From a bacterium (GTDB lineage Bacteria; Sysuimicrobiota; Sysuimicrobiia; Sysuimicrobiales; Humicultoraceae): a stretch of DNA of 16,016 bases. Where the stretch lies: contig JBGQGY010000090.1 of assembly GCA_041497675.1 (NCBI GenBank), forward strand, positions 1 through 16,016, given 5' to 3'. The translations under genes and the position numbers were made by a program. Under the pieces are notes generated by a model. It ran no database searches. It was given only the letters and a program-made list of their open reading frames with translations, and had not been told where the DNA came from. Positions 2,299-13,209 of the stretch are shown here, one piece after another (the first letter of the stretch is position 1; each line of letters opens with the position of its first letter).

Positions 2299-3351
2299 CT
2301 ACGGGACCAGGTATCCGTAGATCGTCATTCCGGCCATGTACAACACGGCGAACACGGCTATGACCAGGGCGATCCGGCGCGCCCGCGTTTTCTGGTCTCC
2401 GCGGTCCAGCAACGGGACGGCCAGCAGCGCCAACGCGGCCAGCGTGAAGCCGAGGATGCCCAGGCGCTCGCCCTCAATGCCCAGCACGTGCGAGGGGATC
2501 AGTTTGAGAGTCTGAAACATGAACACGAAGTACCACTCGGGCCTGATACCCGCGGGGGCGGGCGCGAGCGGATCCGCCTTCTCGCCCACCGGCCACGGCA
2601 GCAGCACCGCAAGCACGGCCAGCACGCCGATCGTTATCACCCAGACGATCGCCTCTCTCAACGCGAACTGTGGGACAAACGGGTGCGCCCGACCCGGTCC
2701 TCGCTCGTCTGCACGGCTCATCCCGTGCAACTGCACAAGGAAGATATGGAGCGCGAGGGTGATCCCTATGAGTGCCGGCAAGATCGCCACGTGGATGCCG
2801 AAGAAGCGGCTCAGCGTGGCTTGCGTGACGTCCTCGCCGCCGCGGAGCAACACGAGCAGGACGTGGCCCACCACAGGCACCGCGCCGACGATTTCCGTCC
2901 CAACTTTCGTCGCGAAATAGGCCAGCGTGTTCCACGGCAGCAGGTAGCCGGTGAAGCCGAAGCCGAGGGTGAGAAAGAGCAGGAGCGCACCCGACATCCA
3001 TGTGAGCTCGCGGGGGCGGCTGTACGCGCGCACAAAGAACGACCCGAACATGTGGGCGAAGACCCAGAAGACCATCAAGTTGGCCGCCCAACTGTGGATC
3101 GACCGCACCAGCCATCCGAAGGGCACCTTGGCCATGATGAACCGCACGCTCTCGTGCGCGGCTTCGGCCGTCGGCCGGTAGTACATGAGCAGGAGGAGTC
3201 CGGTGACCACTTGGATGAGGAACAAGAACAGCGTGATCCCACCGAAGTAGTAGACATACCAATGGCGGTTGATCGGAACGCTCTTGTGGCGCAGGAAGTC
3301 GTCGGCGGCACGCCACTTGAGCCGATCCTCGAGCCAAGTACCGAGACTCAT
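2299..3351 (-). CDS. qcrB: Cytochrome b subunit of a Rieske/cytochrome b complex (unsplit b6+subunit IV type, ~350 aa)
   Basis: FGG...TGLLL..YY.P, RSIH-x13-H, PRELTW.SG, GFTGYLLPW, RFFGIH-x14-H and the Qo-site PEWY motif. Start moved to ATG 3351 (MSLGTWLEDRL), 8 bp after the Rieske stop. Confidence 0.93.
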   Translation of the reverse strand: MSLGTWLEDRLKWRAADDFLRHKSVPINRHWYVYYFGGITLFLFLIQVVTGLLLLMYYRPTAEAAHESVRFIMAKVPFGWLVRSIHSWAANLMVFWVFAHMFGSFFVRAYSRPRELTWMSGALLLFLTLGFGFTGYLLPWNTLAYFATKVGTEIVGAVPVVGHVLLVLLRGGEDVTQATLSRFFGIHVAILPALIGITLALHIFLVQLHGMSRADERGPGRAHPFVPQFALREAIVWVITIGVLAVLAVLLPWPVGEKADPLAPAPAGIRPEWYFVFMFQTLKLIPSHVLGIEGERLGILGFTLAALALLAVPLLDRGDQKTRARRIALVIAVFAVLYMAGMTIYGYLVP

Positions 3352-3359
3352 GGGCGCGG

Positions 3360-3806
3360 CTAGGCTGTGCGGGTGACGACGATGTCGTTCCCCTTGACCG
3401 TCACACCGAACTCCGCGAGCGGCCTGGGCGGCGGGCCCGACAGTACCTGCCCGCTCAGCGGATCGTAATGACCGTCGTGGCATGCGCACCAGATGTGCCC
3501 GAAGTCGCCCCGGTACTGCACCGTGCAGGACAGATGCGTGCACACGGCGCTGAAGGCTTTGTAGGTGCCCTGCGAGGTGTGCACGAGGAGCGCCGGCTTG
3601 CTACCGAAGAGGAAGACTTTGCCCGAGTTCGGCTGCACGTCACCCACCTTGGCGGCCACGATGCTCCCCGCTGAGACTTCCTTGACCTGAGGCGGGATCA
3701 AGTACCGGATGAGAGGATACAGGACCGTGCCGGCGAGGGCGGCCAGGCCGGCGCCGAGCAGATAGTCGGCCAGCGTTCTGCGGGTGATCCGCGGGGCTTT
3801 CACCAC
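3360..3806 (-). CDS. qcrA: Rieske [2Fe-2S] subunit of the Rieske/cytochrome b complex
   Basis: TRRTL twin-arginine followed by a TM anchor. Box I CTHLSC, box II CACHDGHY, C-terminal GPPPRPL. Confidence 0.93.
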   Translation of the reverse strand: MVKAPRITRRTLADYLLGAGLAALAGTVLYPLIRYLIPPQVKEVSAGSIVAAKVGDVQPNSGKVFLFGSKPALLVHTSQGTYKAFSAVCTHLSCTVQYRGDFGHIWCACHDGHYDPLSGQVLSGPPPRPLAEFGVTVKGNDIVVTRTA

Positions 3807-3818
3807 ACGTGCCCTGTT

Positions 3819-6800
3819 CTAGGCCTTGACCACCCTGACCTTCGTATCGTAGAAGACCGCACTCCCCCCGATCTGGTCGGTGAGGCAGGTATTCGCAAGC
3901 TGAGGGTCGGTGCGGAAGACGGCATTCGCGTGAACCCCGGTCCGCCGGCGCGGATCGCCCTTGACGACCCGTCCGTCAATGACGACATCGGAAGCGCCAC
4001 TGGCCCAGTGCCCGTAGCCGACTGCGAAAGTGATGACGCCGGGCCGAATGCCTTCGGTGAGTTTGATCTTGCCGACGATCGGAATCCGCCGGCCGTTTTT
4101 CAGGTCCCACTCACCGCGCGGGTTCGTCGCTGATGAGATCCGCACACGGTCACCGTCGTTGAGGTTCCGCGCTTTCGCATCCTTCGCGTGCATGTAGATC
4201 AGGTTCTCCGGCAGGATGCTCGTCAGCCAGTAGTTGGTGATCGTTCGGCTCTTCGTGTGGAGGATGACGCGGTTCGTAATGAGGTTCAGATCGTAGCCCG
4301 CTGCGTCGTCGCGAATGGGCCGGCCCTGGCTGTCCGCCACGGGATGATACCCAGGGGTCCCAGAGAAGTACTTGCCGCTGAACGCGTTCTTGCTCGTGGC
4401 CACCTTCTCGAGGTAGAGGTTGACCAAGTTGCCGTAGTGACCTCGCAGCTTCTCGCCGTCGAAGGCCCCCTCGTATTCCATGAAGCGACCGCCGCGGTTC
4501 AGGACGTACACGATCTTCTTCCACCAGCGCTCGCCCGCGGCCGCCCGCCAGCGGTCTGGATCGAAGACCGATCTGGGCAGATGCTGACGGGCCGCCAGAA
4601 AGATGCGTTCCTCCTCCGGGGAGGCGTCTGGCACCTCGTCCCCGGCCCGGTCTCCGAACGCGACGTTCGCCGCTTCGCGAACGTAGAAGTCATCGGGCCG
4701 CAGGAGGTCTTGCCCGGGGCCGAACGCGTCGTTGCCAAATCCCGGAAGTCCGAGTTTCTCGGCGATCCCCAGCATCAACGCTTCAAACGACGCCGGCATC
4801 TCCTCGCCGAAGACACGCACTGACCGCGTCAGGGGCGCGATGACGGGGCTGTAGGCCGGCGCTACCTTGGGGAGCACGCTCGGGTGCGTCCCGTGGAAAT
4901 CCCACCGCTCGAGGTAGGTGACGTCGGGGAAGATGTAGTCGGCGTACATGGACGTCGGTCCGATCAAGATGTCACTGGCGATGACCAGCGGGATCTTGGT
5001 GGGATCGGCCAGGATCTCGATGTTGGTATGACCCGCCGGCAGCGAGTAGGTGGGCGCGGCCGTGTACAACAGGACGATCTTGATCGGGTAGGGATAGCCT
5101 TCGGCCGCCGACGGCAGGGTCTCCTGGTAGATGTCGCTCGCCATGGGGTACCACTGGCGCTTCGCCGGGTAGCCTTTGAACAGGGTCGAGTCTTCGTACT
5201 TCTCCTCCGTCCGGATCAGTGGCGTGCCAAACGGGGTGTTCCGGTTGGGGTGCATCGAGCGGACGTTGAACGGCGCGCCGGGCCGGCCACCGGCCTGGTC
5301 GTAGGCGCTCGCCCACGCCGATCCGCCCCTCCAGTCATAGTTGCCCACGAGCGTATTCAATGCGTACCACGTGAAGCAGTTGTAGAAGCCGTTCGTATGC
5401 TGGCTGCAGCCGCGGTGGAGATCGACGGCGGCCCGCTTGCCGTGGCTGGTGAACTCCTTGGCCAGTTCAACGATGTCCTCTGCGGACACACCCGCCAGCG
5501 CGGCCCAACCGGCGATGGAGCGCATGCTCGCCTCCTCGTACAGGAGCTGCATCGCGCTCTTCGCCTGGATGCCGCCGACGAATGTGTCGACCAGCAGGTC
5601 GCCCTCGACTGTGGTGCGGGTGTCGTAGGGATCAACGGCAACCGGCCTCCCATCCTTCAGGACGACGAAGAGATCGCGGTCGGAGAGCCCGACCTCAGAC
5701 GCCCGCAGAAACTTCCCAGGGTGTCCCTCCTCGATCTTCACCAACCATGAGGCGTTGCTCCACGTCGGTTCGCCGTCGGCCGTGGCCGCGGCACGGTTGG
5801 CATTGGCCAGGTACTTCGAATCGAACCGCCGTTGCTCGATGACCCACCGGATCATGCCGAGCGCGATAGCGGCCTCGGTGCCTGGCTTGTTGGGCAACCA
5901 CTTCCACGCCTTGCTGGCCGACCGCGAGAATCGGGGATCGACGACCGCGATCTTGAGGCGACCGGTGACGATACCTTTCGTCAGCTTGCCGGCGCGCAGC
6001 GGCGGGCCGTAGTTGGCTTCCAGGGGATTGGCGCCGACGAAGATGAGAAACTCGGCGTGCTCCGTGTCCGCCTGCCAGTAGAACTTGCGGCCCCCGGTCC
6101 ATGTGCCGCCGCTGTATTGGTCGCTCATCGCCTTGCCTGTGAAGTAGAGCGACCCCTGGCAGACCGTGGTGTGGCCGAGCCGGTTGATCGTCCCGAAGGC
6201 GTCGCCGGCGAACCGGGTCACGAAGTCGCCGCGGCCGCCCTTCTCCCGACCCTTCCAGTAGACGAACTGGTTGTTCTTGGGCCCGAGATCCGGATGGTCG
6301 GGGTCGATCAGCGTGTGGAGATGATCCCGGTACTTGCGCTTGAACTCCTCGACGGTCATCCTTTTCTGCTTGACCACCGCGACATCCGCCGCCATCGACC
6401 GGGCCACGTTCGGGTCGCGGAGTGCGTACACGTCCTTGAAGCCTTCAATCACACGGTTCTCCTCGCCAGGGATATTGGCGAAGAGCCGGCCGCCCGTGAC
6501 GATCTCGCTGATGGCCTGATCGAAGGGGATGGTCTTCCACTTGTTCGATCCTCTGGGACCGGCCCGCTTGAGCACCGTGCGGATCCGATATGGGTCGTAG
6601 ACGGTCTGGATGCCCGCCTGGCCCTTGGGACAGATCGTCCCGGTCACAGGTGCCAGGTCTCCGATCGGCGTCGTGTAGGGAAGATGCGGAGCCATGGTCC
6701 ACGGGCTCAGCGGATTGCCGTCGATCTTGACCGCCACGCCCCGGTCGAGGCTCACCTTGATCCCGCACCCCGTGTTGCACTGCAGGCAGACGGTGTAGAG

Positions 6801-6971
6801 GGTATTCTCCGGTTTGCCGTAGGGATACGCAGCAGTACCGTCCGCGGCCTCAGCAGGGAGTATGGTGCGCAGGGTGTTCGAGATCCGGCTGTAGGCAGCC
6901 GCGCCTCCGAGGAGGGCGGCCGAGGCGAACAACCCGCGGCGGCTTACCCTTTCCGATGTCTTCCGTGGCAT
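3819..6971 (-). CDS. Tat-exported Mo/W-bisPGD oxidoreductase catalytic subunit, TtrA/SrdA (tetrathionate reductase-like) family
   Basis: 1050 aa; SRRGLF Tat motif; FS0 motif CLQCNTGC-x44-CPKG; DPYR...LKRAGPRG..KW; likely Mo ligand Cys in GHTTVCQG; DYIFPD.TYLERW; C-terminal molybdopterin dinucleotide-binding domain (GYGHW). GGGAGGGAG RBS upstream. Substrate cannot be determined from sequence. Confidence 0.88.
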   Translation of the reverse strand: MPRKTSERVSRRGLFASAALLGGAAAYSRISNTLRTILPAEAADGTAAYPYGKPENTLYTVCLQCNTGCGIKVSLDRGVAVKIDGNPLSPWTMAPHLPYTTPIGDLAPVTGTICPKGQAGIQTVYDPYRIRTVLKRAGPRGSNKWKTIPFDQAISEIVTGGRLFANIPGEENRVIEGFKDVYALRDPNVARSMAADVAVVKQKRMTVEEFKRKYRDHLHTLIDPDHPDLGPKNNQFVYWKGREKGGRGDFVTRFAGDAFGTINRLGHTTVCQGSLYFTGKAMSDQYSGGTWTGGRKFYWQADTEHAEFLIFVGANPLEANYGPPLRAGKLTKGIVTGRLKIAVVDPRFSRSASKAWKWLPNKPGTEAAIALGMIRWVIEQRRFDSKYLANANRAAATADGEPTWSNASWLVKIEEGHPGKFLRASEVGLSDRDLFVVLKDGRPVAVDPYDTRTTVEGDLLVDTFVGGIQAKSAMQLLYEEASMRSIAGWAALAGVSAEDIVELAKEFTSHGKRAAVDLHRGCSQHTNGFYNCFTWYALNTLVGNYDWRGGSAWASAYDQAGGRPGAPFNVRSMHPNRNTPFGTPLIRTEEKYEDSTLFKGYPAKRQWYPMASDIYQETLPSAAEGYPYPIKIVLLYTAAPTYSLPAGHTNIEILADPTKIPLVIASDILIGPTSMYADYIFPDVTYLERWDFHGTHPSVLPKVAPAYSPVIAPLTRSVRVFGEEMPASFEALMLGIAEKLGLPGFGNDAFGPGQDLLRPDDFYVREAANVAFGDRAGDEVPDASPEEERIFLAARQHLPRSVFDPDRWRAAAGERWWKKIVYVLNRGGRFMEYEGAFDGEKLRGHYGNLVNLYLEKVATSKNAFSGKYFSGTPGYHPVADSQGRPIRDDAAGYDLNLITNRVILHTKSRTITNYWLTSILPENLIYMHAKDAKARNLNDGDRVRISSATNPRGEWDLKNGRRIPIVGKIKLTEGIRPGVITFAVGYGHWASGASDVVIDGRVVKGDPRRRTGVHANAVFRTDPQLANTCLTDQIGGSAVFYDTKVRVVKA

Positions 6972-6986
6972 GTCGCTCTCCCTCCC

Positions 6987-7949
6987 CTATCGGCCGTGGC
7001 AGGTCTGGCAGGATTCCGGCGTGCTGACTGGCATCGTCTGGCGCGAGGCTGCGCCAACGTAGAAGATCCTCGGCTCGGTGCCGCGGCTCTCGTTGACGCG
7101 CATCGTCTTCTCCCGCGACCGCAACTCAGACACCAGGCTCTCGATGTCGTTGGCGTCGCCGAAGTACATCGCCCCGCCGATGCACGTCGCCACGCACGCG
7201 GGCAGCAGGCCTGCCTCAATCCGCTGGAGGCAGAAGTGGCACTTGCGGCCGGCGCCGATGGGCAGCGCCCCGTCAATGCGGGTCCAGACCTTGCCGTATT
7301 CCACATGGGGACGCGTCTCGTAGGCCTGGCGGGCCGGGGTACCGTCGGTCCAGTAGCGACCCTCATCGAAGTAGAGCGCCTTGTAGGGACAGGCCTTCCG
7401 GGCTGCGACGAAAGCCTTCCGGCCAAACTTCTGGTAGTCGACGGTGACGATCCCGTCGGGACGCTTGGCCATCGAGCCGGGACTGACCGCGTTGGCGGCC
7501 GGGAGGCAGGGTGGCTTGTCGCACTGCTGGCAGTTCGTCGGCATGAATGACGCCTGCACGTTGGGGAACTCTCCGGATTCCACTTTGGGTACGGTCCGGT
7601 AGGAGACACCCGGCGGCAGGCCGTTCTCTGCGGTGCAGGCGACCGTGCACGCGTCGCAGCCGATGCACCGGCGGGCGTCGATGACCATGGCCCACTTGCG
7701 CTGCTCGACCGGTTTCGCCAGCGTTCGGTAGAGGTCGCGCTGCATCCTCACGATCTGATGCTCACCGGGTTTGGGATCTCGAATGGCCGTCGGCACAGGA
7801 GGAGCGGCATTCGCCTGTCGTCGCGGGACCGCCCCGGTCAGGACACTCACACTGCCCAGAGCAATCGCAGCCGAAGTGCCCTTCTTGAGAAAAGCGCGCC
7901 GCTTCATGGGCGGCGCCTCCTGAACTGGGCCTGCAGTTTCCCTCGCCAC
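6987..7949 (-). CDS. TtrB/DmsB-like Fe-S electron transfer subunit, atypical (three clusters predicted; C-terminal CxxCH)
   Basis: KRRAFLK Tat motif; WAMVID..RCIGCDACTVAC; CQQCDKPPC; CPY; KCHFC..RI..GLLPACVATC; GTEPRIFY. GTG 7949 and ATG 7907 both have a GGAGG RBS. Confidence 0.9.
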   Translation of the reverse strand: MARETAGPVQEAPPMKRRAFLKKGTSAAIALGSVSVLTGAVPRRQANAAPPVPTAIRDPKPGEHQIVRMQRDLYRTLAKPVEQRKWAMVIDARRCIGCDACTVACTAENGLPPGVSYRTVPKVESGEFPNVQASFMPTNCQQCDKPPCLPAANAVSPGSMAKRPDGIVTVDYQKFGRKAFVAARKACPYKALYFDEGRYWTDGTPARQAYETRPHVEYGKVWTRIDGALPIGAGRKCHFCLQRIEAGLLPACVATCIGGAMYFGDANDIESLVSELRSREKTMRVNESRGTEPRIFYVGAASRQTMPVSTPESCQTCHGR

Positions 7950-8276: not shown

Positions 8277-8327
8277 CAGGGCCGGTGAGGCGGACACACC
8301 TGTACCTTGGCGGAGGGAGGAGCGACT

Positions 8328-8645
8328 ATGAACTGCTACGAGTGCGCGTTGGCCAACGAGACGGTTGCGGCCGTCGCGGTTTGCGGGCACTGCGGGGTTG
8401 GGCTCTGTCTCCAGCACTTGCGCAAGGCGCAGGTGTACCGTGTCGGTGGCACCCTTTACGGCTGCGAGCATCAGCTCGCCGAGGTTGGCCGACCGTGGCT
8501 CGGTGCGAATGCCGCTGAGCCGTCCGGTCGTAGATCGCTCGGCCCGAGGGAGCAGCGCTTCTCGCAAATTCCTGACAGGGGCAATCAACCGCTTTCTGAC
8601 TCCCGATCAAATCCGAGGGCAGACGGGCTCAAGATCGGTCGGTGA
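8328..8645 (+). CDS. Small Cys/His-rich protein, DUF2180-like
   Basis: Strong RBS (GGAGGGAGGAG) before ATG 8328. Pattern MNCYEC...AVAVCGHCGVGLC.QH...GCEH. The last ~37 codons run into repeat copy 2. Confidence 0.7.
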   Translation: MNCYECALANETVAAVAVCGHCGVGLCLQHLRKAQVYRVGGTLYGCEHQLAEVGRPWLGANAAEPSGRRSLGPREQRFSQIPDRGNQPLSDSRSNPRADGLKIGR

Positions 8646-8707
8646 ACTGATGACAGGGGCACCGCGACGTTAGTGTGTGAATGAGCGCATACAAGCATTA
8701 CCCTGGT
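8533..8707 (+). repeat. Direct repeat copy 2 (~175 bp), ending 1 bp before the arsR ATG
   Basis: Near-identical to 8103-8276. Carries the degenerate promoter/operator ATGACA...TAGTGT and GTGTGT-N8-GCATAC. Confidence 0.95.
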
Positions 8708-8708
8708 T

Positions 8709-9143
8709 ATGAGAGCGATCGTTGAGGCCTTTAAGGCTCTTTCCGACCCGACGCGGGTCAGGGTCATCGCCTTGCTCGCGGAGGTGCCGGACGGTGCCTG
8801 CGTATGCGAGCTCGTGGACGCCCTGCGGCTTCCTCAGTATCAGGTGTCCAGGCATCTGGCTGTGCTGCGCGCCGCGGCCCTGGTCGATACGCGTCGGAAA
8901 GGGACGTGGGTCTTCTACGGGATGCGGGCCGACCTGCCTGAGCCTGTTGCAGGTATCGTAGGCGCCGTTGGCGGGGGAACCCCGGATGAGGTCATGACTG
9001 AGGATCGCCGGCGGCTTCGCCAGCGGCTGCAACTGCGCGAGGATGGGGCCTGTGTGGTGGGATATGATCCAGTGCGATCGTTCCGAGAGATCATCCCGCT
9101 CCGACTGGTGCCCGCGACGAAAGGGAGGTCAAGCCGTGCCTGA
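8709..9143 (+). CDS. arsR: ArsR/SmtB family As(III)-responsive repressor
   Basis: FKALSDPTR.RV, metal-binding ACVCEL, VSRHLAVLR HTH, RKGTWVFY wing; heads the ars cluster. Confidence 0.9.
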   Translation: MRAIVEAFKALSDPTRVRVIALLAEVPDGACVCELVDALRLPQYQVSRHLAVLRAAALVDTRRKGTWVFYGMRADLPEPVAGIVGAVGGGTPDEVMTEDRRRLRQRLQLREDGACVVGYDPVRSFREIIPLRLVPATKGRSSRA

Positions 9144-9468
9144 CACCGACAAGGTTACCATTGAGGTCTTCGCCCCTCCGATGTGCTGCCGTGGGGGGGG
9201 TGCGGCCCGACGGTCGATCCGGCCCTGCTGGACATCAGCGAGACTCTGGTCCGCCTGAAGCGGCAGCACGACGGGCAGGTGGCGGTCGAGCGTTACATAC
9301 TGCTCCACCAGGCCGGCAAGTTTCATGCAGGCGGCGCCGGTGATGGCGATCCTGCGCTCACAGGGGGCGGGGACGCTGCCCATGACGTTGGTTCGGCGAC
9401 CGGATTGTCGCTATAGGGCGATACCCTCGTATCAAGAACCGGCGGACGCCGTGGCGGCGGGTCCGTAG
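9136..9468 (+). pseudogene. arsD: arsD arsenite metallochaperone pseudogene (about 4 frameshifts)
   Basis: RBS AAGGGAGG, GTG 9136. Segments in shifting frames: IEVFAPPMCC / CGPTVDPALL...VERY.L.HQ..KF / MQAAPVMAILRSQG..TLPMTLV / GDRIVAIGRYP / SYQE.ADAV..TAG, matching the ArsD pattern MCCxxGxCGPxVD...LP..LVDG.IV..GRYP. Confidence 0.85.
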
Positions 9469-9473
9469 CCAAT

Positions 9474-9700
9474 ATGGAGGATTGGATTGAGCGTTCCGCA
9501 AGATTCGAACCGTACTGGCCGGAGTTGAGTCAGTTCGTGCTCTTCTCCGGAAAGCGCAGAGTCGGGAAGACAACGATGGCCGTGGCGACAGCGTGCACCA
9601 CCGCAACGGGGCAGATGGTGGCTCTCAAGCAGACGCTGGCCGAACAATTCGGCATTCGCTACGTCACGATTCAGATGGAAGCGGTAAATTGCGGCAGGGG
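9474..9700 (+). pseudogene. arsA: arsA 5' stub fused in frame to the 3' tail of a CDF (CzcD/ZitB-like) transporter
   Basis: FVLFSGKRRVGKTTMAVATA is a degenerate ArsA Walker A (GKGGVGKT) directly after arsD, followed by LKQTLAEQFGIRYVTIQME..NC, resembling the CDF C-terminal FGI.H.TIQ.E motif. Confidence 0.7.
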
Positions 9701-9775
9701 ACGGTCGCGCGCGGGGGAACGGTGGCACGATGGACCTAGCTCACGTGTGCGCCTACTGGGAGGCAACGTTGTCCG

Positions 9776-10936
9776 ATGCGGAAGAAAACCACGGCTGACC
9801 TGGCTCCACGTCCCGAAGGTGCGAGTAAGTCGCGAGAGACGTTGCTTACCCCGATAGTAGCGGCGAGAAAGACCCTCGGTCCGTTCGAACGGTATCTGAG
9901 CATCTGGGTCGGCGCGTGCATGGTTGTCGGGGTCTTCCTGGGGAAACTGCTGCCCGCGCTCACCGATGGGCTCCGGCGGCTGGAGTTCGGTGCGGGCAGC
10001 CAGATCAACCTCCCGATCGCGGTCCTCATCTGGCTAATGATCATCCCGATGATGATGAAGGTCGACTTTGCCGCAATCCGGAACGTCGGCAGGCGGCCGC
10101 GAGGGCTGTTCGTGACCCTCTTTGTCAATTGGTTGGTCAAACCGTTCTCGATGGCGTTCATCGCGTGGCTCTTCTTCCGCCACATCTTCGCGGCTTGGAT
10201 CGCCCCCACTGAGGCGGACCAGTATATCGCCGGGGCCATCATCCTGGCCGCGGCACCCTGCACCGCCATGGTCTTTGTGTGGAGTTATCTCACGGACGGC
10301 GACCCCGGCTACACACTCATGCAGGTCTCCGTCAACGATCTCATCATGCTCGTTCTCTTCGCGCCCATCGTGCGATTTCTCGTCAGCGGTGCCTCTTCGC
10401 TCGAGGTCCCTTTGCGGGTGCTGCTGTACTCGGTCGGCATCTTTATCGTGATACCGCTGGTGCTGGGCGCCTGTCTCCGAAGCTGGTTCGTCCGGCGGCG
10501 CGGCGTGGTGTGGTTCACCGAGGCGCTGCTGCCCCGCTTTGCACCGGTCAGCATGATGGCATTGCTCGCCACGCTGGTCCTGATCTTCGCCTTCCAGGCC
10601 GACAATATCACGAGCAAGAGCCTCCACGTGATCTTGATCGCGATTCCCATTCTTATTCAAGTGTATTTCAACTCCTCGCTGACGTACGGCCTGATGAGGC
10701 TGTTCCGGGTTCAGCACGCGATTGCTGCGCCGGGCGCGTTGATCGGGGCAAGCAACTTCTTCGAGCTTGCGGTCGCAACAGCCATCGCCCTCTTCGGCCC
10801 CGGCTCGGGCGCCGCCCTGGCCACCGTCGTCGGCGTCCTGATTGAGGTTCCGGTGATGCTCTCAGTGTGCTCGGTGTGCAACCGCACCCGGCACTGGTTC
10901 CCGGCCGGTACCGGCGAGGCGGCAATCAGTCCTTGA
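9776..10936 (+). CDS. acr3: ACR3 family arsenite efflux transporter
   Basis: FERYLSIWV, NLPIAVLIWLMI.PMM, NWLVKPFSM, APCTAMVFVWS with the essential Cys, GASNFFELAVA, GVLIEVPVML. Exact start uncertain. Confidence 0.96.
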   Translation: MRKKTTADLAPRPEGASKSRETLLTPIVAARKTLGPFERYLSIWVGACMVVGVFLGKLLPALTDGLRRLEFGAGSQINLPIAVLIWLMIIPMMMKVDFAAIRNVGRRPRGLFVTLFVNWLVKPFSMAFIAWLFFRHIFAAWIAPTEADQYIAGAIILAAAPCTAMVFVWSYLTDGDPGYTLMQVSVNDLIMLVLFAPIVRFLVSGASSLEVPLRVLLYSVGIFIVIPLVLGACLRSWFVRRRGVVWFTEALLPRFAPVSMMALLATLVLIFAFQADNITSKSLHVILIAIPILIQVYFNSSLTYGLMRLFRVQHAIAAPGALIGASNFFELAVATAIALFGPGSGAALATVVGVLIEVPVMLSVCSVCNRTRHWFPAGTGEAAISP

Positions 10937-10974
10937 GGGAAAGGCCCGGCCTACGACGAACAAAATCCACCAAC

Positions 10975-11412
10975 GTGCAGAGGCAGCGGATCCTTTTCCT
11001 GTGCACCCATAATTCTGCCCGCTCACAGATGGCGGAAGGTCTGCTCCGGACCGCGGCCGGCGACCGCTTCGAGGTTCACAGCGCAGGGACGATCGCGACA
11101 TCCGTGCGACCGGAGGCCATCCGGGTGATGGCCGAACTCGGCATCGACATCACGGGCCACGAAAGCAAGACTGTCGACCGTTTCCTGAAGCAACCGTTCG
11201 ATTGGGTGATTACGGTCTGCGATGACGCGGCGGAAGCCTGTCCGATGTTTCCTGGCCCGGGACATCTGTTACATTGGTCGCTGCCCGATCCCGGCGCGGT
11301 CCAGGGCAAAGAGAATCAGCGGTTCGCGGTGTTTCGGGGGGTGCGGGATCGGTTGCGCCGGCTAATCACCGACTTCATCACCCAATACGGCAGTGGGACA
11401 TTCGTGCCGTGA
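10975..11412 (+). CDS. arsC: Thioredoxin-coupled arsenate reductase (LMW-PTP fold)
   Basis: ILFLCTHNSARSQMAEG P-loop, resolving pair VITVCDDAAEACP, HW.LPDP. Start GTG 10975, or TTG 10933 overlapping the acr3 stop. Confidence 0.93.
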   Translation: MQRQRILFLCTHNSARSQMAEGLLRTAAGDRFEVHSAGTIATSVRPEAIRVMAELGIDITGHESKTVDRFLKQPFDWVITVCDDAAEACPMFPGPGHLLHWSLPDPGAVQGKENQRFAVFRGVRDRLRRLITDFITQYGSGTFVP

Positions 11413-11590: not shown

Positions 11591-12331
11591 CTAGTCGGTT
11601 GGGGACTCGCCTTCGGCCTGCGCCTCGGGGGGGGATGGTGGAGGCGCGAGCCCGCGTGCTTCCAGGTCCTCGAACTCCCCCGCGTGTTCGTGACGCAGCC
11701 GTTCCACGGGGATCCTACCAGTGAACATCGCCGGATCCATAGGGAAGATGTTCGGCCGGAAGTGCGCGTTGTAGAAGTGCCAGATGATCACGGCAAACAG
11801 CGCGAGAAGCGCTTCGCCGCCGTGCACAACCCGCGAGGCTGGAATGACGACCCCCGGAAGCCACCGGGTCACGATGATCGGGAACCACATGATCAGTCCG
11901 GTGGCGACCATCAGCGCCGTGCCCCACACGACCGCCCAGTACTCGAACTTCTGGCGGTAGTCGAACCGGCCGAAGCGGGGACGTTCGCGTCGACGGCCCG
12001 CCAGAAAGACGGCATCGTCGATCAGATCCCGCACGTCCGCACGTGAGAAGTGCATGTCGTGGCGCCGCACGGGCCGCTTCCGGCCGGCCACCACGGCTAC
12101 AAGGTGGTACAGCCCCTGTGCGATGAGAATCACCGCGAGCGTCCGGTGAATGCGCCGGGTGGTCTCGATCCCGCCGAACATAGCGATCAGCCGCCCGGCC
12201 CAGTCGGCAGCCGAGTACTTCTGCGGCAGACCCGTCAGCGCCAAGATGTTGAACGATAGCAGCAGCACAAAGTGCTCAACCCGCTGCGCCAGCGAGAACC
12301 GTTCGACCGTGGGCTCTCCCCGGCGCATCAT
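11591..12331 (-). CDS. Diheme cytochrome b, FdnI/CbcL membrane-domain type
   Basis: RFS..QRVEH...LALTGLP, RRIHR, RFDYRQKFEYWA..WG...M..TG..MWFP, VVHGGEALLA...IWHFYNAH, EH. ATG 12331 overlaps the upstream TGA (ATGA). Confidence 0.9.
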   Translation of the reverse strand: MMRRGEPTVERFSLAQRVEHFVLLLSFNILALTGLPQKYSAADWAGRLIAMFGGIETTRRIHRTLAVILIAQGLYHLVAVVAGRKRPVRRHDMHFSRADVRDLIDDAVFLAGRRRERPRFGRFDYRQKFEYWAVVWGTALMVATGLIMWFPIIVTRWLPGVVIPASRVVHGGEALLALFAVIIWHFYNAHFRPNIFPMDPAMFTGRIPVERLRHEHAGEFEDLEARGLAPPPSPPEAQAEGESPTD

Positions 12332-13209
12332 GCCCGCCCACCCCATCGGGTCACGGCCCAATGCCAGAGATCCAGCCCCGTCAGGACGACGAGCACACCG
12401 ACGACGCCCGGAATGAGGATGAGGTAGAACAGCTGCGCCAGGTAGACGAGCGTCGAGTGGCGCAGGCTCGGTATCCGATGCTCGGTCCAGGCCGTCGCGA
12501 AGAGCGGGCCGGCTTTGGCGTGGCACCGGCGGCAGGTGGTCAGGACATTGGCCGGCGCCACCGGCGATTCGGGATCCGCCACGCGCCTGACGGCGTGGGC
12601 GGTGTGGCAGTCGTAGCAGACCGCCGATGGCGACCGGACGGCGGGCGTGACCAGACGGTAGAGCCTCGTGGTCACACCGTGGAACTCTTCGACGTAGGCC
12701 TGGTAGACGGGACGTAGCCCGTACCGCCGCATCACCGCGTCGTCGGCGTGGCAGTTGCCGCAGGTCTCGGGGATGCTGTTACGGAAGGCTGCCGACTTGG
12801 GTTTGATGACTGCGTGGGTCGTGTGGCAGGACGTGCACAGCGGGACGTCGCCCAGGCCCATCCGCAGGCCCCGGCCGTGGACGCTCAGCTCATACATCTT
12901 GGACTGGTCCGCGTGACAGGTCGCGCAGACCTGCTGGGCCACGACTCGATAGGATCGGCGCGAGGTGGCCGTCCGGGCCGGATGAGGATACCCAGTGTGG
13001 GTCGTGTGACAGGTCGTGCAGGTGAAATCTTTGTGGACGGACGCCGCGAATTTCTTGGAATTGATCGTGACGTCCAGCGCTCCGTCAGGGAAGGTGATCG
13101 CGGTCCCTTCGACCTGATGACACGCCAGGCAGGCTTCGTTATCCTGTGCGACGGCTGGCTGTGGGGAACCGAGTATCCACGCGGCGACAAGCAGGATCAG
13201 CCAGTACAC
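12328..13209 (-). CDS. Heptaheme cytochrome c with C-terminal TM anchor (CbcL periplasmic-domain-like)
   Basis: Signal peptide (AVA|Q); seven CxxCH (CLACH, CTTCH, CATCH, CTSCH, CGNCH, CYDCH, CRRCH); C-terminal hydrophobic helix; translationally coupled to the cytochrome b. Confidence 0.92.
   Translation of the reverse strand: MYWLILLVAAWILGSPQPAVAQDNEACLACHQVEGTAITFPDGALDVTINSKKFAASVHKDFTCTTCHTTHTGYPHPARTATSRRSYRVVAQQVCATCHADQSKMYELSVHGRGLRMGLGDVPLCTSCHTTHAVIKPKSAAFRNSIPETCGNCHADDAVMRRYGLRPVYQAYVEEFHGVTTRLYRLVTPAVRSPSAVCYDCHTAHAVRRVADPESPVAPANVLTTCRRCHAKAGPLFATAWTEHRIPSLRHSTLVYLAQLFYLILIPGVVGVLVVLTGLDLWHWAVTRWGGRA

Follow-up and report, generated by a model that had tools for sequence, protein, structure and literature searches.

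Described relatives of the enzyme

The closest described relatives of the enzyme considered here are the Ttr-type molybdoenzymes, in which a catalytic A subunit and a ferredoxin-type B subunit are accompanied by TtrC, an NrfD-type quinol-binding membrane anchor. The present analysis concerns a B-A gene pair on the bacterial contig JBGQGY010000090.1. This contig, analysed at its complete length of 16,016 bases and referred to as the window, belongs to a 3.97-Mb genome whose nearest relatives in our trees are labelled Candidatus Sysuimicrobiota (formerly CSP1-3); all positions follow the numbering of the window. TtrBCA of the Salmonella type is the best family match of both subunits, and the two systems have in common that B precedes A and that A, at about 1050 aa, has a cysteine as molybdenum ligand. 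Twin-arginine translocation (Tat) signals on both B and A have been described for the Ttr clade (PMC2500031), and both subunits likewise carry one here, RRAFLK in B and SRRGLF in A. The locus differs from TtrBCA in having no TtrC or NrfD, in a B subunit that has lost the ligands of its fourth iron-sulfur cluster (FS4) and gained a C-terminal extension with a CxxCH motif, in scores of 133 and 471 bits where the TtrB and TtrA cut-offs are 416 and 1750, and in a Gly-Arg motif in A.

Ttr-like arsenate reductases have been reported for Anaeromyxobacter sp. PSR-1, Pyrobaculum aerophilum and Melioribacter roseus (PMC12949373, PMC5492636, PMC11462812). In M. roseus the Ttr-like enzyme is implicated in arsenate respiration, and an ArrTSR-like sensor lies near the arsenate-induced ttr locus (PMC5492636). 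These enzymes (including PAE1265 of P. aerophilum, MROS_1076 of M. roseus and that of Geobacter sp. OR-1) are TtrA-like with a Gly-Arg motif and have ars genes or sensors nearby, as here. Four of the loci that we compared with the window (L006, L007, L009 and L010) resemble the description of M. roseus, with B-A in all four and a histidine kinase and a sigma-54 regulator in L006 and L007. The published Ttr-like arsenate reductases are drawn as TtrABC or TtrBCA with four clusters, and were compared with B by description only.

Anchorless pairs have been encountered before: TtrAB lacking TtrC was noted in sulfur-disproportionating bacteria (PMC9751629, PMC13490349). These clusters (Hashimoto 2022; Dissulfuribacter 2026) contain A and B genes without an anchor, likewise as here, and the missing gene is remarked upon, while the available portions of the two papers make no mention of a remodelled B or of a tail.

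Two soluble enzymes offer further comparisons. FdhAB of Desulfovibrio, which donates electrons to periplasmic cytochromes c, is like the present enzyme in being anchorless, with a small subunit holding one cluster fewer, and the small subunits of D. vulgaris (6sdr_B) and D. gigas (1h0h_B) have the same fold as B (Foldseek E-value about 1e-12). They are only about 21-23% identical to B, which points to independent loss of the cluster, and we know of no C-terminal CxxCH tail in the FdhAB small subunit. The whole soluble enzyme is described as containing four [4Fe-4S] clusters (PMC9774666). The top structural match of B is to ArrAB of Shewanella sp. ANA-3 (6cz7), a soluble periplasmic A-B heterodimer whose ArrA shares with A an active-site His-x-x-x-Cys and the Gly-Arg motif. 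Shewanella ArrAB takes its electrons from the membrane cytochrome c CymA. It differs from the enzyme considered here in its gene order, A-B, in having an A subunit of another clade, and in an ArrB that keeps four clusters (PMC2500031).

A periplasmic molybdoenzyme wired to quinone through Rieske/cytochrome b proteins, as we propose below, has parallels in the Qcr-Nap/Tor system of Campylobacter jejuni and in haloarchaeal pNarGH. In haloarchaea, pNarGH and the Rieske/cytochrome b proteins NarB/NarC are encoded in one operon. C. jejuni Qcr feeds the periplasmic molybdenum reductases Nap and Tor (PMC6195509). Unlike in these systems, the link here would run through multihaem cytochromes and a three-cluster B, and a few genomes of Sysuimicrobiota alone (3 of 32 loci) have the genes so linked. 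Neither the loss of FS4 nor a CxxCH tail was found mentioned in the open-access main texts searched, and the main text of the Sysuimicrobiota phylum paper (PMC11604079) mentions neither ttr nor Rieske nor molybdopterin. As far as the literature searched extends, the FS4-less, tailed, anchorless form is undescribed. As a whole, we judge it on balance probable that the pair encodes a soluble, anchorless, three-cluster, haem-tailed Ttr-like enzyme that is coupled to cytochromes and acts on arsenate.

A ferredoxin subunit without the ligands of FS4

The B gene (6987-7907, minus strand; 306 aa plus stop) encodes a ferredoxin of the TtrB-like kind, for which three [4Fe-4S] clusters are predicted. 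Residues are numbered from Met1 at 7905-7907, while the analyses were run on 6987-7910, which adds one N-terminal residue. The protein begins MKRRAFLKKG, and its Tat motif (RRAFLK, 7884-7901, minus strand) conforms to an RRxFLK consensus kept throughout two alignments of B homologues. B matches the Pfam family Fer4_11 (PF13247, 3.7e-19) and, in sequence searches of the PDB, PsrB (2vpw_B, 6e-33) and ArrB (6cz7_B, 2.3e-28). The best NCBIfam model is TtrB (NF011569), at 133.2 bits below its cut-off of 416; the ArrB model NF041715 is likewise below threshold (114.2 bits, cut-off 450). The name TtrB therefore stands as the best family match but is loose, in view of that score and of the arsenic context described below, a point missed by the sequence-only reading of the window that preceded this work. 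An AlphaFold2 model built from a 128-sequence alignment reached a mean predicted local distance difference test (pLDDT) score of 94.3 and was used in place of a single-sequence model, which was dropped (pLDDT 33.9). The top Foldseek matches of the model are ArrB (6cz7_B) and PsrB (2vpw_B); ArrB, PsrB and ActB are all matched with probability 1.00, and the TM-score normalised to PsrB is 0.84. B is a ferredoxin-type fold homologous to PsrB, ArrB and NarH.

In this fold, 16 cluster cysteines are arranged in four groups, and B has 12 of them. Group I (CIGCDACTVAC, 7635-7667) and group IV (CHFCLQRIEAGLLPACVATC, CHFC...CVATC; 7182-7241) are complete in the translation of the minus strand. Groups II and III are remodelled, over an interval (7389-7532, minus strand) that spans exactly from the first cysteine of group II to the surviving cysteine of group III; the translation of 7386-7535 reads NCQQCDKPPCLPAANAVSPGSMAKRPDGIVTVDYQKFGRKAFVAARKACP. 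Cys126, Cys129 and Cys134 of group II are present, Ala138 occupies the position of the fourth cysteine, and the group also holds a 3-residue insertion. In group III the region of the first three cysteines has become a basic, alanine-rich segment, and the sole remaining cysteine, Cys173 (7389-7391), is the fourth of the group and a ligand of FS3. HMMER alignment to PsrB (2vpw_B) places CVPVC---PTGA opposite CLPAANAVSPGS in group II and CI--ACGACIAACPY opposite FGRKAFVAARKACPY in group III, so that the changes relative to PsrB consist of substitutions with one 3-residue and one 2-residue insertion. The translation and this alignment agree with the earlier claim that group II lacks its fourth cysteine and group III its first three while groups I and IV are intact.

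FS4 is the cluster closest to the membrane and faces the membrane subunit. We take the four lost positions to be its ligands, as in the structures of NarGHI, PsrABC and Fdh-N. The 12 remaining cysteines are enough for three [4Fe-4S] clusters, the number that B is predicted to carry.

The replacement follows one pattern across the clade of FS4-less B proteins: VC---P of group II becomes AANAxxP, and the CIGCRYC stretch of group III gives way to a longer, alanine-rich, basic segment. The 16 residues before the fourth cysteine of group III contain on average 4.56 lysines plus arginines in 178 FS4-less proteins versus 1.8 in 88 FS4-bearing ones, and the replaced segment is net positive in 166 of the 178. 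The Lys/Arg-rich nature of the replacement, first remarked upon in the window, is thus a conserved property.

Variation was also seen at other cluster sites. In the FS4-less proteins of L015 and L018, which come from one Desulfobacterales metagenome-assembled genome and one 'Deltaproteobacteria' metagenome-assembled genome labelled Myxococcota, group I reads CVGDHAC, with an aspartate for the second cysteine of the FS1 motif; this suggests an Asp-ligated or a 3Fe cluster. An FS4-bearing TtrB (L048, G004:C63) has valine for the third cysteine of group II (CMQCENPPVLPVCP), a change that might reflect either faulty sequencing or another mode of FS3 ligation.

Conservation of the altered site

A search of 5.8 billion proteins returned 1830 matches to B at E <= 1e-10, of which the best 120 (50-99% identical) were inspected. 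The four FS4 cysteines were found in none of these 120, and a single stray cysteine inside the segment of one homologue (P0045) was the sole exception to the pattern. In a representative protein library 1539 proteins match B at the same threshold, and 269 retrieved homologues were classified by motif into 133 FS4-less, 84 FS4-bearing, 7 mixed and 46 partial proteins; addition of a second search and removal of duplicates gave the 178 FS4-less and 88 FS4-bearing proteins used above. The FS4-less state is common to 32 distinct genomic loci, the window included.

Gene decay, or an error of assembly or sequencing, has next to no chance of explaining the missing cysteines; nothing was found in its favour beyond the existence of poor assemblies of this organism, such as that of P0131 (below). 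The reading frame is intact, with 12 cysteines at canonical spacing, the alignment-based model is of high confidence (pLDDT 94.3), and the same pattern recurs in 120 of 120 homologues and in the 32 loci. Moreover, contigs from three other metagenome runs, one of which possibly represents the sample from which the window itself came, agree over the region: two (X1 and X3) show zero differences over 7389-7532, and the third (X7), which covers it from 7414, differs by a single third-codon-position change at 7458. No indels were seen in the three contigs, which all have the same tail codons at 6996-7010. FS4 loss is therefore a conserved design, neither decay nor assembly error, which upholds the view of the sequence-only reading on this point.

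Three database proteins considered as B-cytochrome fusions were rejected. FS4 is present in two of them, P0129, in which NrfD and B are fused, and P0134, a B protein carrying an additional domain at its C-terminus; the third, P0131 (527 aa), is a frameshifted read-through of the same B-A locus in a poorer assembly, so that apparent long B homologues need checking before they are called fusions.

Absence of a membrane anchor

Two sets of loci were compared, 25 from species-representative genomes of many phyla and 28 around 30 other B-like places in the phylum of the window, in which 27 of 94 genomes match (one, G024, enters the 94-genome tallies only). Removal of five duplicates left 32 FS4-less loci, including the window, and 15 FS4-bearing TtrB-like loci, together with one locus (L056) whose B is truncated and its FS4 state unreadable. 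Related genomes occur among the loci, which are thus not independent samples. NrfD was sought in four ways: by Pfam on 158 flanking open reading frames (ORFs), by the coordinates of PF03916 matches across whole genomes, by tblastn, and by a six-frame hidden Markov model (HMM) search. The last was included because greedy ORF picking took antisense frames in some GC-rich loci; it also picks up the distant NrfD genes of the genome.

By these four methods, NrfD/TtrC adjoins B or A in none of the 32 FS4-less loci, while NrfD does so in all 15 FS4-bearing ones. The order in the latter is B-NrfD-A except in L019, which reads B-A-chaperone-NrfD and where the A gene is distant from B. B and A are adjacent in 30 of the 32 FS4-less loci, and also in L020; in the remaining two (L038 and L041) the contig ends inside or just after B. 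The six-frame HMM search detected no NrfD in the window, the three NrfD genes of the genome lying on other contigs, and the ttrBCA order with TtrC between B and A does not occur there. One FS4-less locus (L040) has an NrfD gene 3.7 kb upstream, but behind a separate FS4-bearing ferredoxin gene. Against this, the absence is weaker in L004, L008, L038 and L041, whose contigs stop no more than about 1 kb from B or from A.

The loss of FS4 had been read from the window as adaptive remodelling matching the loss of TtrC. This is supported by the division between the two groups of loci and by the single B clade described below, and an FS4-less B beside an adjoining NrfD, which would have spoken for the contrary, occurs in 0 of 32 loci. 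The co-occurrence that had been foreseen is found in part: FS4 loss goes with the absence of nrfD, but is accompanied by Rieske/cytochrome b genes in only 3 of the 32 loci. FS4 loss is thus tied to the missing membrane anchor, and its interpretation as adaptive remodelling is supported.

Histories of the B and A subunits

A maximum-likelihood tree of B was built from an alignment that left out the group II/III segment and the tail, that is, the columns of the trait itself. One branch splits 30 FS4-less from 15 FS4-bearing rows with support 100/100; the FS4-less B proteins are a single clade. In the tree of A (40 rows) the FS4-less and FS4-bearing types are interleaved and three changes are needed. 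An approximately unbiased test rejects a single split in the A tree (log-likelihood difference 234, p about 1e-113), although the groups were named after the tree was seen, which makes the test somewhat generous. Two active-site types of A, HTTVCQGSLYF and HTxICEQSHHIA, each pair with both FS4-less and FS4-bearing B. The conflict between the two trees is most simply read as exchange between TtrA-like lineages, with either the anchorless B module or, conversely, a B-C pair probably passing from one to another.

The C-terminal CxxCH tail

FS4-bearing TtrB proteins finish at ..VYYL, and the FS4-less ones run 12-22 residues further. In the window this extension (6990-7052, minus strand), which is absent from FS4-bearing TtrB, ends in CQTCH (6996-7010; residues 300-304), a candidate haem c site with His304 as the predicted axial ligand. 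CxxCH was present in 87 of the 133 FS4-less and 0 of the 84 FS4-bearing proteins of the initial set. After sequences had been added and duplicates removed, it was found within the last 16 residues of 137 of the 178 FS4-less proteins; another 38 have the histidine without both cysteines and 3 have neither. Of 31 loci with a complete C-terminus, 28 have CxxCH and 3 (L039-L041) the histidine only, and the histidine is invariant in 36 of 36 rows of one alignment. The AlphaFold2 model places the tail motif in a short helix (residues 254-260). A tail with a near-invariant histidine thus accompanies FS4 loss, a feature that the sequence-only reading had overlooked.

Near-invariance of the histidine beside variable cysteines is what an axial haem ligand would show if covalent attachment were optional. 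Whether the tail is a haem site that has taken over the role of FS4 appears about evenly balanced, and, of the two candidates for the electron port, the CxxCH/His tail is more specific than the Lys/Arg patch. Several points weigh against a haem. The pLDDT of the tail is just 66-80, and no distal methionine or histidine that might serve as sixth haem ligand was identified among the clade-specific conserved columns. Haem c is normally attached to unfolded proteins exported through the general secretory (Sec) system, and B bears a Tat rather than a Sec signal, albeit with its CxxCH on a terminal tail that could stay accessible; we know of no precedent for haem c on a Tat substrate. B would need either to have the haem joined to its exposed tail once exported or to bind it beforehand, and we know of no precedent for either. 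Covalent haem also cannot be universal, since 38 of 178 proteins have the histidine without the two cysteines and 3 lack both elements.

These points lend some force to an arrangement without haem, somewhat unlikely in our estimation, in which electrons pass from FS3 to a cytochrome docked on the Lys/Arg patch and the tail is structural or binds another metal. The conserved basic patch, with its excess of lysine and arginine (4.56 versus 1.8) and its net positive charge in 166 of 178 proteins, would suit such docking, and in all 41 of 178 FS4-less proteins have no full CxxCH. The small subunit of Desulfovibrio FdhAB, moreover, manages with three clusters and no haem, in an enzyme with four [4Fe-4S] clusters in all (PMC9774666). 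Yet the tail occurs solely with FS4 loss (0 of 84 FS4-bearing proteins), 137 of 178 proteins have CxxCH among their last 16 residues, far beyond chance, and the histidine is conserved as an axial ligand would be.

Arrangement of the operon and the cytochrome cluster

B heads a five-gene operon on the minus strand, followed by A and by genes for a Rieske protein, a cytochrome b and a multihaem cytochrome c (mhc), with gaps of 15, 12, 8 and 6 nt. The Rieske [2Fe-2S] protein (3360-3806) has a PetC-type transmembrane anchor (Pfam Rieske PF00355, 5.4e-13, and TM_PetC PF25471; NCBIfam b6f PetC-like). The cytochrome b (2299-3351) is a b6 protein fused to subunit IV, with 8 predicted membrane helices (Cytochrome_B PF00033, 2.9e-49, and Cytochrom_B_C PF00032), and its NCBIfam matches are cytochrome b6 and ExtP-like. 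The last gene, mhc (970-2292), encodes 9 CxxCH motifs and a C-terminal membrane helix. Upstream of B, also on the minus strand, lie mhc3 (12328-13209), a cytochrome c with 7 CxxCH and a C-terminal membrane helix, and the gene of an FdnI/HydC-like membrane cytochrome b with an uncertain start codon (11591-12346; Ni_hydr_CYTB, 3.8e-14; NCBIfam formate dehydrogenase gamma-like). These two presumably resemble a split quinol:cytochrome module of the CbcL type. Beyond mhc3 follow a LuxR-type response regulator and then a GAF histidine kinase. The position of B-A within such a cluster, between the 7-haem and FdnI-like proteins on one side and the Rieske protein, cytochrome b and 9-haem cytochrome on the other, suggests that electrons travel via cytochromes and not via TtrC.

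The order B-A-Rieske-cytochrome b-mhc recurs in L031 and L034. In a fourth locus (L033; G004:C11, about 7490-7812) A is followed by remnants matching Rieske residues 24-83 and multihaem residues 381-436, which look like the result of a recent deletion of the Rieske, cytochrome b and multihaem genes; these genes were not found after A in any other FS4-less locus. Six loci of the family to which the window belongs (L004, L031, L033, L034, L036 and L038) have the mhc3 and FdnI-like genes immediately upstream of B, and in the window ars genes stand between them and B. The cytochrome cluster also exists without B-A: L060 (G006:C104) and L061 (G020:C136) contain the series kinase-regulator-mhc3-FdnI-like-Rieske-cytochrome b-mhc with no B-A inside, and these two related genomes have B-A elsewhere (L001, L002), where its neighbours are ArsP, ArsR and genes for the molybdenum cofactor. 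B-A sits between the FdnI-like gene and the Rieske gene in the window, L031 and L034. The cluster is therefore a stand-alone unit within which B-A sits, rather than one recruited by B-A, and B-A behaves as an insertable cassette. The FdnI-like b, the Rieske/cytochrome b and the two multihaem cytochromes may themselves form an undescribed respiratory complex.

The same observations temper the case for coupling to this particular cluster. Rieske/cytochrome b genes lie downstream of A in only 3 of the 32 FS4-less loci, 21 loci of other phyla have no adjoining cytochrome b and most of them no adjoining cytochrome c, and the clusters without B-A in L060 and L061 mean that the adjacency here may be an insertion, not a dedicated complex. 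The genome of the window has two more cytochrome b genes elsewhere, and in two loci of other clades (L005 and L022) the genes upstream of B encode proteins with 8 CxxCH.

A further multihaem cytochrome c gene, with at least 5 CxxCH and its 5' end cut by the contig edge, occupies 3-956 on the plus strand and converges on the last gene of the operon; an orthologue is found at the same position in L031, L033, L034 and L036. Eight small contigs of a 2018 freshwater-sediment metatranscriptome (X24) fall on the window, in 9 of 30 bins, with matches to A and B at 5642-5918, 6664-6982 and 7621-7787, the two at 5642-5918 being free of differences. As DNA carry-over is possible, these matches are a hint only and no evidence of transcription, induction or an operon transcript.

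An ORF of about 340 aa before B in L006, L007, L009 and L010 was considered as a new membrane anchor and rejected, as it has a signal peptide and no further hydrophobic segment. Together with a C-terminal aromatic residue, these features give it the look of an outer-membrane porin. Such porin-like ORFs, none with a Pfam match, were found in L006 (889-1896), L007 (8524-9549), L009 (3755-4774), L010 (8742-9962) and L014 (10734-12023). An OprO/P-like porin is reported beside the ttr cluster, a ttrBCA homologue, of Dissulfuribacter (PMC13490349), a neighbour which that cluster has in common with B-A in the first four of these loci. The porin-like ORFs may be an oxyanion-specific porin family.

The A subunit and its substrate

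The A gene (3819-6971, minus strand) encodes a TtrA-like enzyme of 1050 aa with a predicted molybdenum-bis(pyranopterin guanine dinucleotide) (Mo-bisPGD) cofactor. Its Tat motif SRRGLF lies at 6927-6944, the motif of its own cluster FS0 at 6765-6788 and 6621-6635, and the molybdenum-ligand cysteine within HTTVC at 6159-6173. A scores 471 bits with the TtrA model NF011567 (cut-off 1750) and 99 bits with the ArrA model (cut-off 1600). HTTVC aligns with HSSVC of ArrA (6cz7_A), so that His-x-x-x-Cys is common to both. The Gly-Arg motif KGREKGGRG (6228-6254) precedes HTTVC by 18-26 residues, and its pattern, xGRxxxGR before the molybdenum-ligand cysteine, is invariant in 40 of 40 A subunits; as the alignment with ArrA begins just after the motif, its register with ArrA R165 is a presumed one. 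True Ttr is reported to lack this Gly-Arg motif of the substrate pocket, which Arr, Arx and the arsenate reductases of the Ttr-like kind possess (PMC12949373).

A block of arsenic resistance genes (8307-11412, plus strand) separates the FdnI-like gene from B. It comprises a small, cysteine-rich DUF2180 ORF between B and arsR (8307-8645), ArsR (8709-9143; NCBIfam ArsR family), Acr3 (9776-10936; NCBIfam acr3 at 371.5 bits, above the cut-off of 282.8) and a thioredoxin-type ArsC (ORF 10867-11412; NCBIfam pI258-type, 128 bits). A DUF2180 ORF is also found beside Acr3 in a Solibacteraceae locus (L021, 6569-6901) and may be an uncharacterised arsenic-island gene. Genes of the ars type, or PhnD-like sensors with sigma-54 regulators, occur in 11 of the 32 FS4-less loci, from at least five phyla, and in 3 of the 15 FS4-bearing ones. 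These neighbours and the Gly-Arg motif in A favour a Ttr-like arsenate reductase, and the A-B enzyme is most likely of this kind, to judge from motif and gene context. Other facts pull the opposite way: 21 of the 32 FS4-less loci have no ars context, ars genes flank arsenite oxidases too, and rhodanese genes beside three loci (L012, L015 and L016) fit sulfur chemistry equally well. Furthermore, no named isolate was met among the matches to the B protein of L018 or in ten homologue clusters, and no link of the FS4-less clade to an experimentally studied enzyme was found.

The substrate might instead be a compound of sulfur (tetrathionate, thiosulfate or sulfite) or of selenium (selenate), with the proximity of ars genes incidental. 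TtrA and TtrB are after all the best family matches, the rhodanese genes and the many loci without arsenic genes would be accounted for, and TtrAB without TtrC is known from sulfur-disproportionating bacteria (PMC9751629, PMC13490349). We nevertheless hold this to be quite improbable, as the scores are far under the cut-offs (471 of 1750 for TtrA, 133 of 416 for TtrB), the motif reported absent from true Ttr (PMC12949373) is present in 40 of 40 A subunits, and arsenic genes or sensors recur in 11 of the 32 loci across at least five phyla.

Alternatively, the enzyme could work in the opposite direction, as an anaerobic or microaerobic arsenite oxidase whose electrons leave via B and multihaem cytochromes for a terminal oxidase, or uphill via Rieske/cytochrome b. 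In L014, L016 and L018, sigma-54 regulators accompany PhnD-like sensors of the periplasm, a combination reminiscent of the AioXSR/ArxXSR systems of arsenite oxidisers, and Rieske centres have high potentials, which suit them to accepting rather than donating electrons. Arr and Arx are, besides, close relatives that run in opposite directions (PMC7331816). However, all reported Ttr-like arsenic enzymes are reductases (PMC12949373, PMC5492636, PMC11462812), and in M. roseus a sensor of this type accompanies the ttr locus induced by arsenate (PMC5492636). A complex of the Qcr type, moreover, is reported to support the reduction of trimethylamine N-oxide at +130 mV (PMC6195509), near the arsenate couple, which is quoted as +139 mV (PMC13490349). 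On this evidence oxidation of arsenite seems unlikely.

Proposed mechanism and implications

These observations lead us to a model of a Ttr-like molybdoenzyme, soluble in the periplasm after export by Tat, that would operate without the NrfD/TtrC quinol-binding anchor and in which B would be the subunit for electron transfer. The three [4Fe-4S] clusters of B, FS1-FS3, would wire FS0 and the Mo-bisPGD of A, and the site of FS4 would have been rebuilt as the basic, alanine-rich segment. The CxxCH tail most likely bears a His-ligated haem, which would replace FS4 as the port to or from multihaem cytochromes c. Electrons of menaquinol would reach the enzyme via membrane cytochrome complexes instead of TtrC, and the substrate is most likely arsenate, which would be reduced to arsenite.

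A broader version of this model can be offered only tentatively. According to it, a widespread clade of Tat-exported B proteins has swapped FS4 and the NrfD anchor for a haem on a CxxCH tail, forming a plug-in B module that moved among TtrA-like subunits; in some hot-spring Sysuimicrobiota the module would have come to share one operon with Rieske, cytochrome b and multihaem cytochrome genes, thereby coupling arsenate respiration to a Q-cycle.

In some rice paddy soils, Ttr-like enzymes are reported to be the principal respiratory arsenate reductases at the level of transcribed genes (PMC11462812). Several papers merely record ttrC as 'missing'; the anchorless form is a distinct conserved design, and the cysteine pattern and the CxxCH/His tail provide, along with the absence of NrfD, sequence markers by which cytochrome-coupled and quinol-coupled Ttr-type enzymes can be told apart in genomes and metagenomes. 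If the model is true, B would be the first 'four-cluster protein' found to be an Fe-S/haem hybrid, with haem c on a Tat substrate. A real haem would widen the set of cofactors of molybdoenzyme ferredoxin subunits, and its attachment to a protein exported by Tat would then call for an explanation. Finally, the operon link to Rieske/cytochrome b suggests an energy-conserving route for arsenate respiration.

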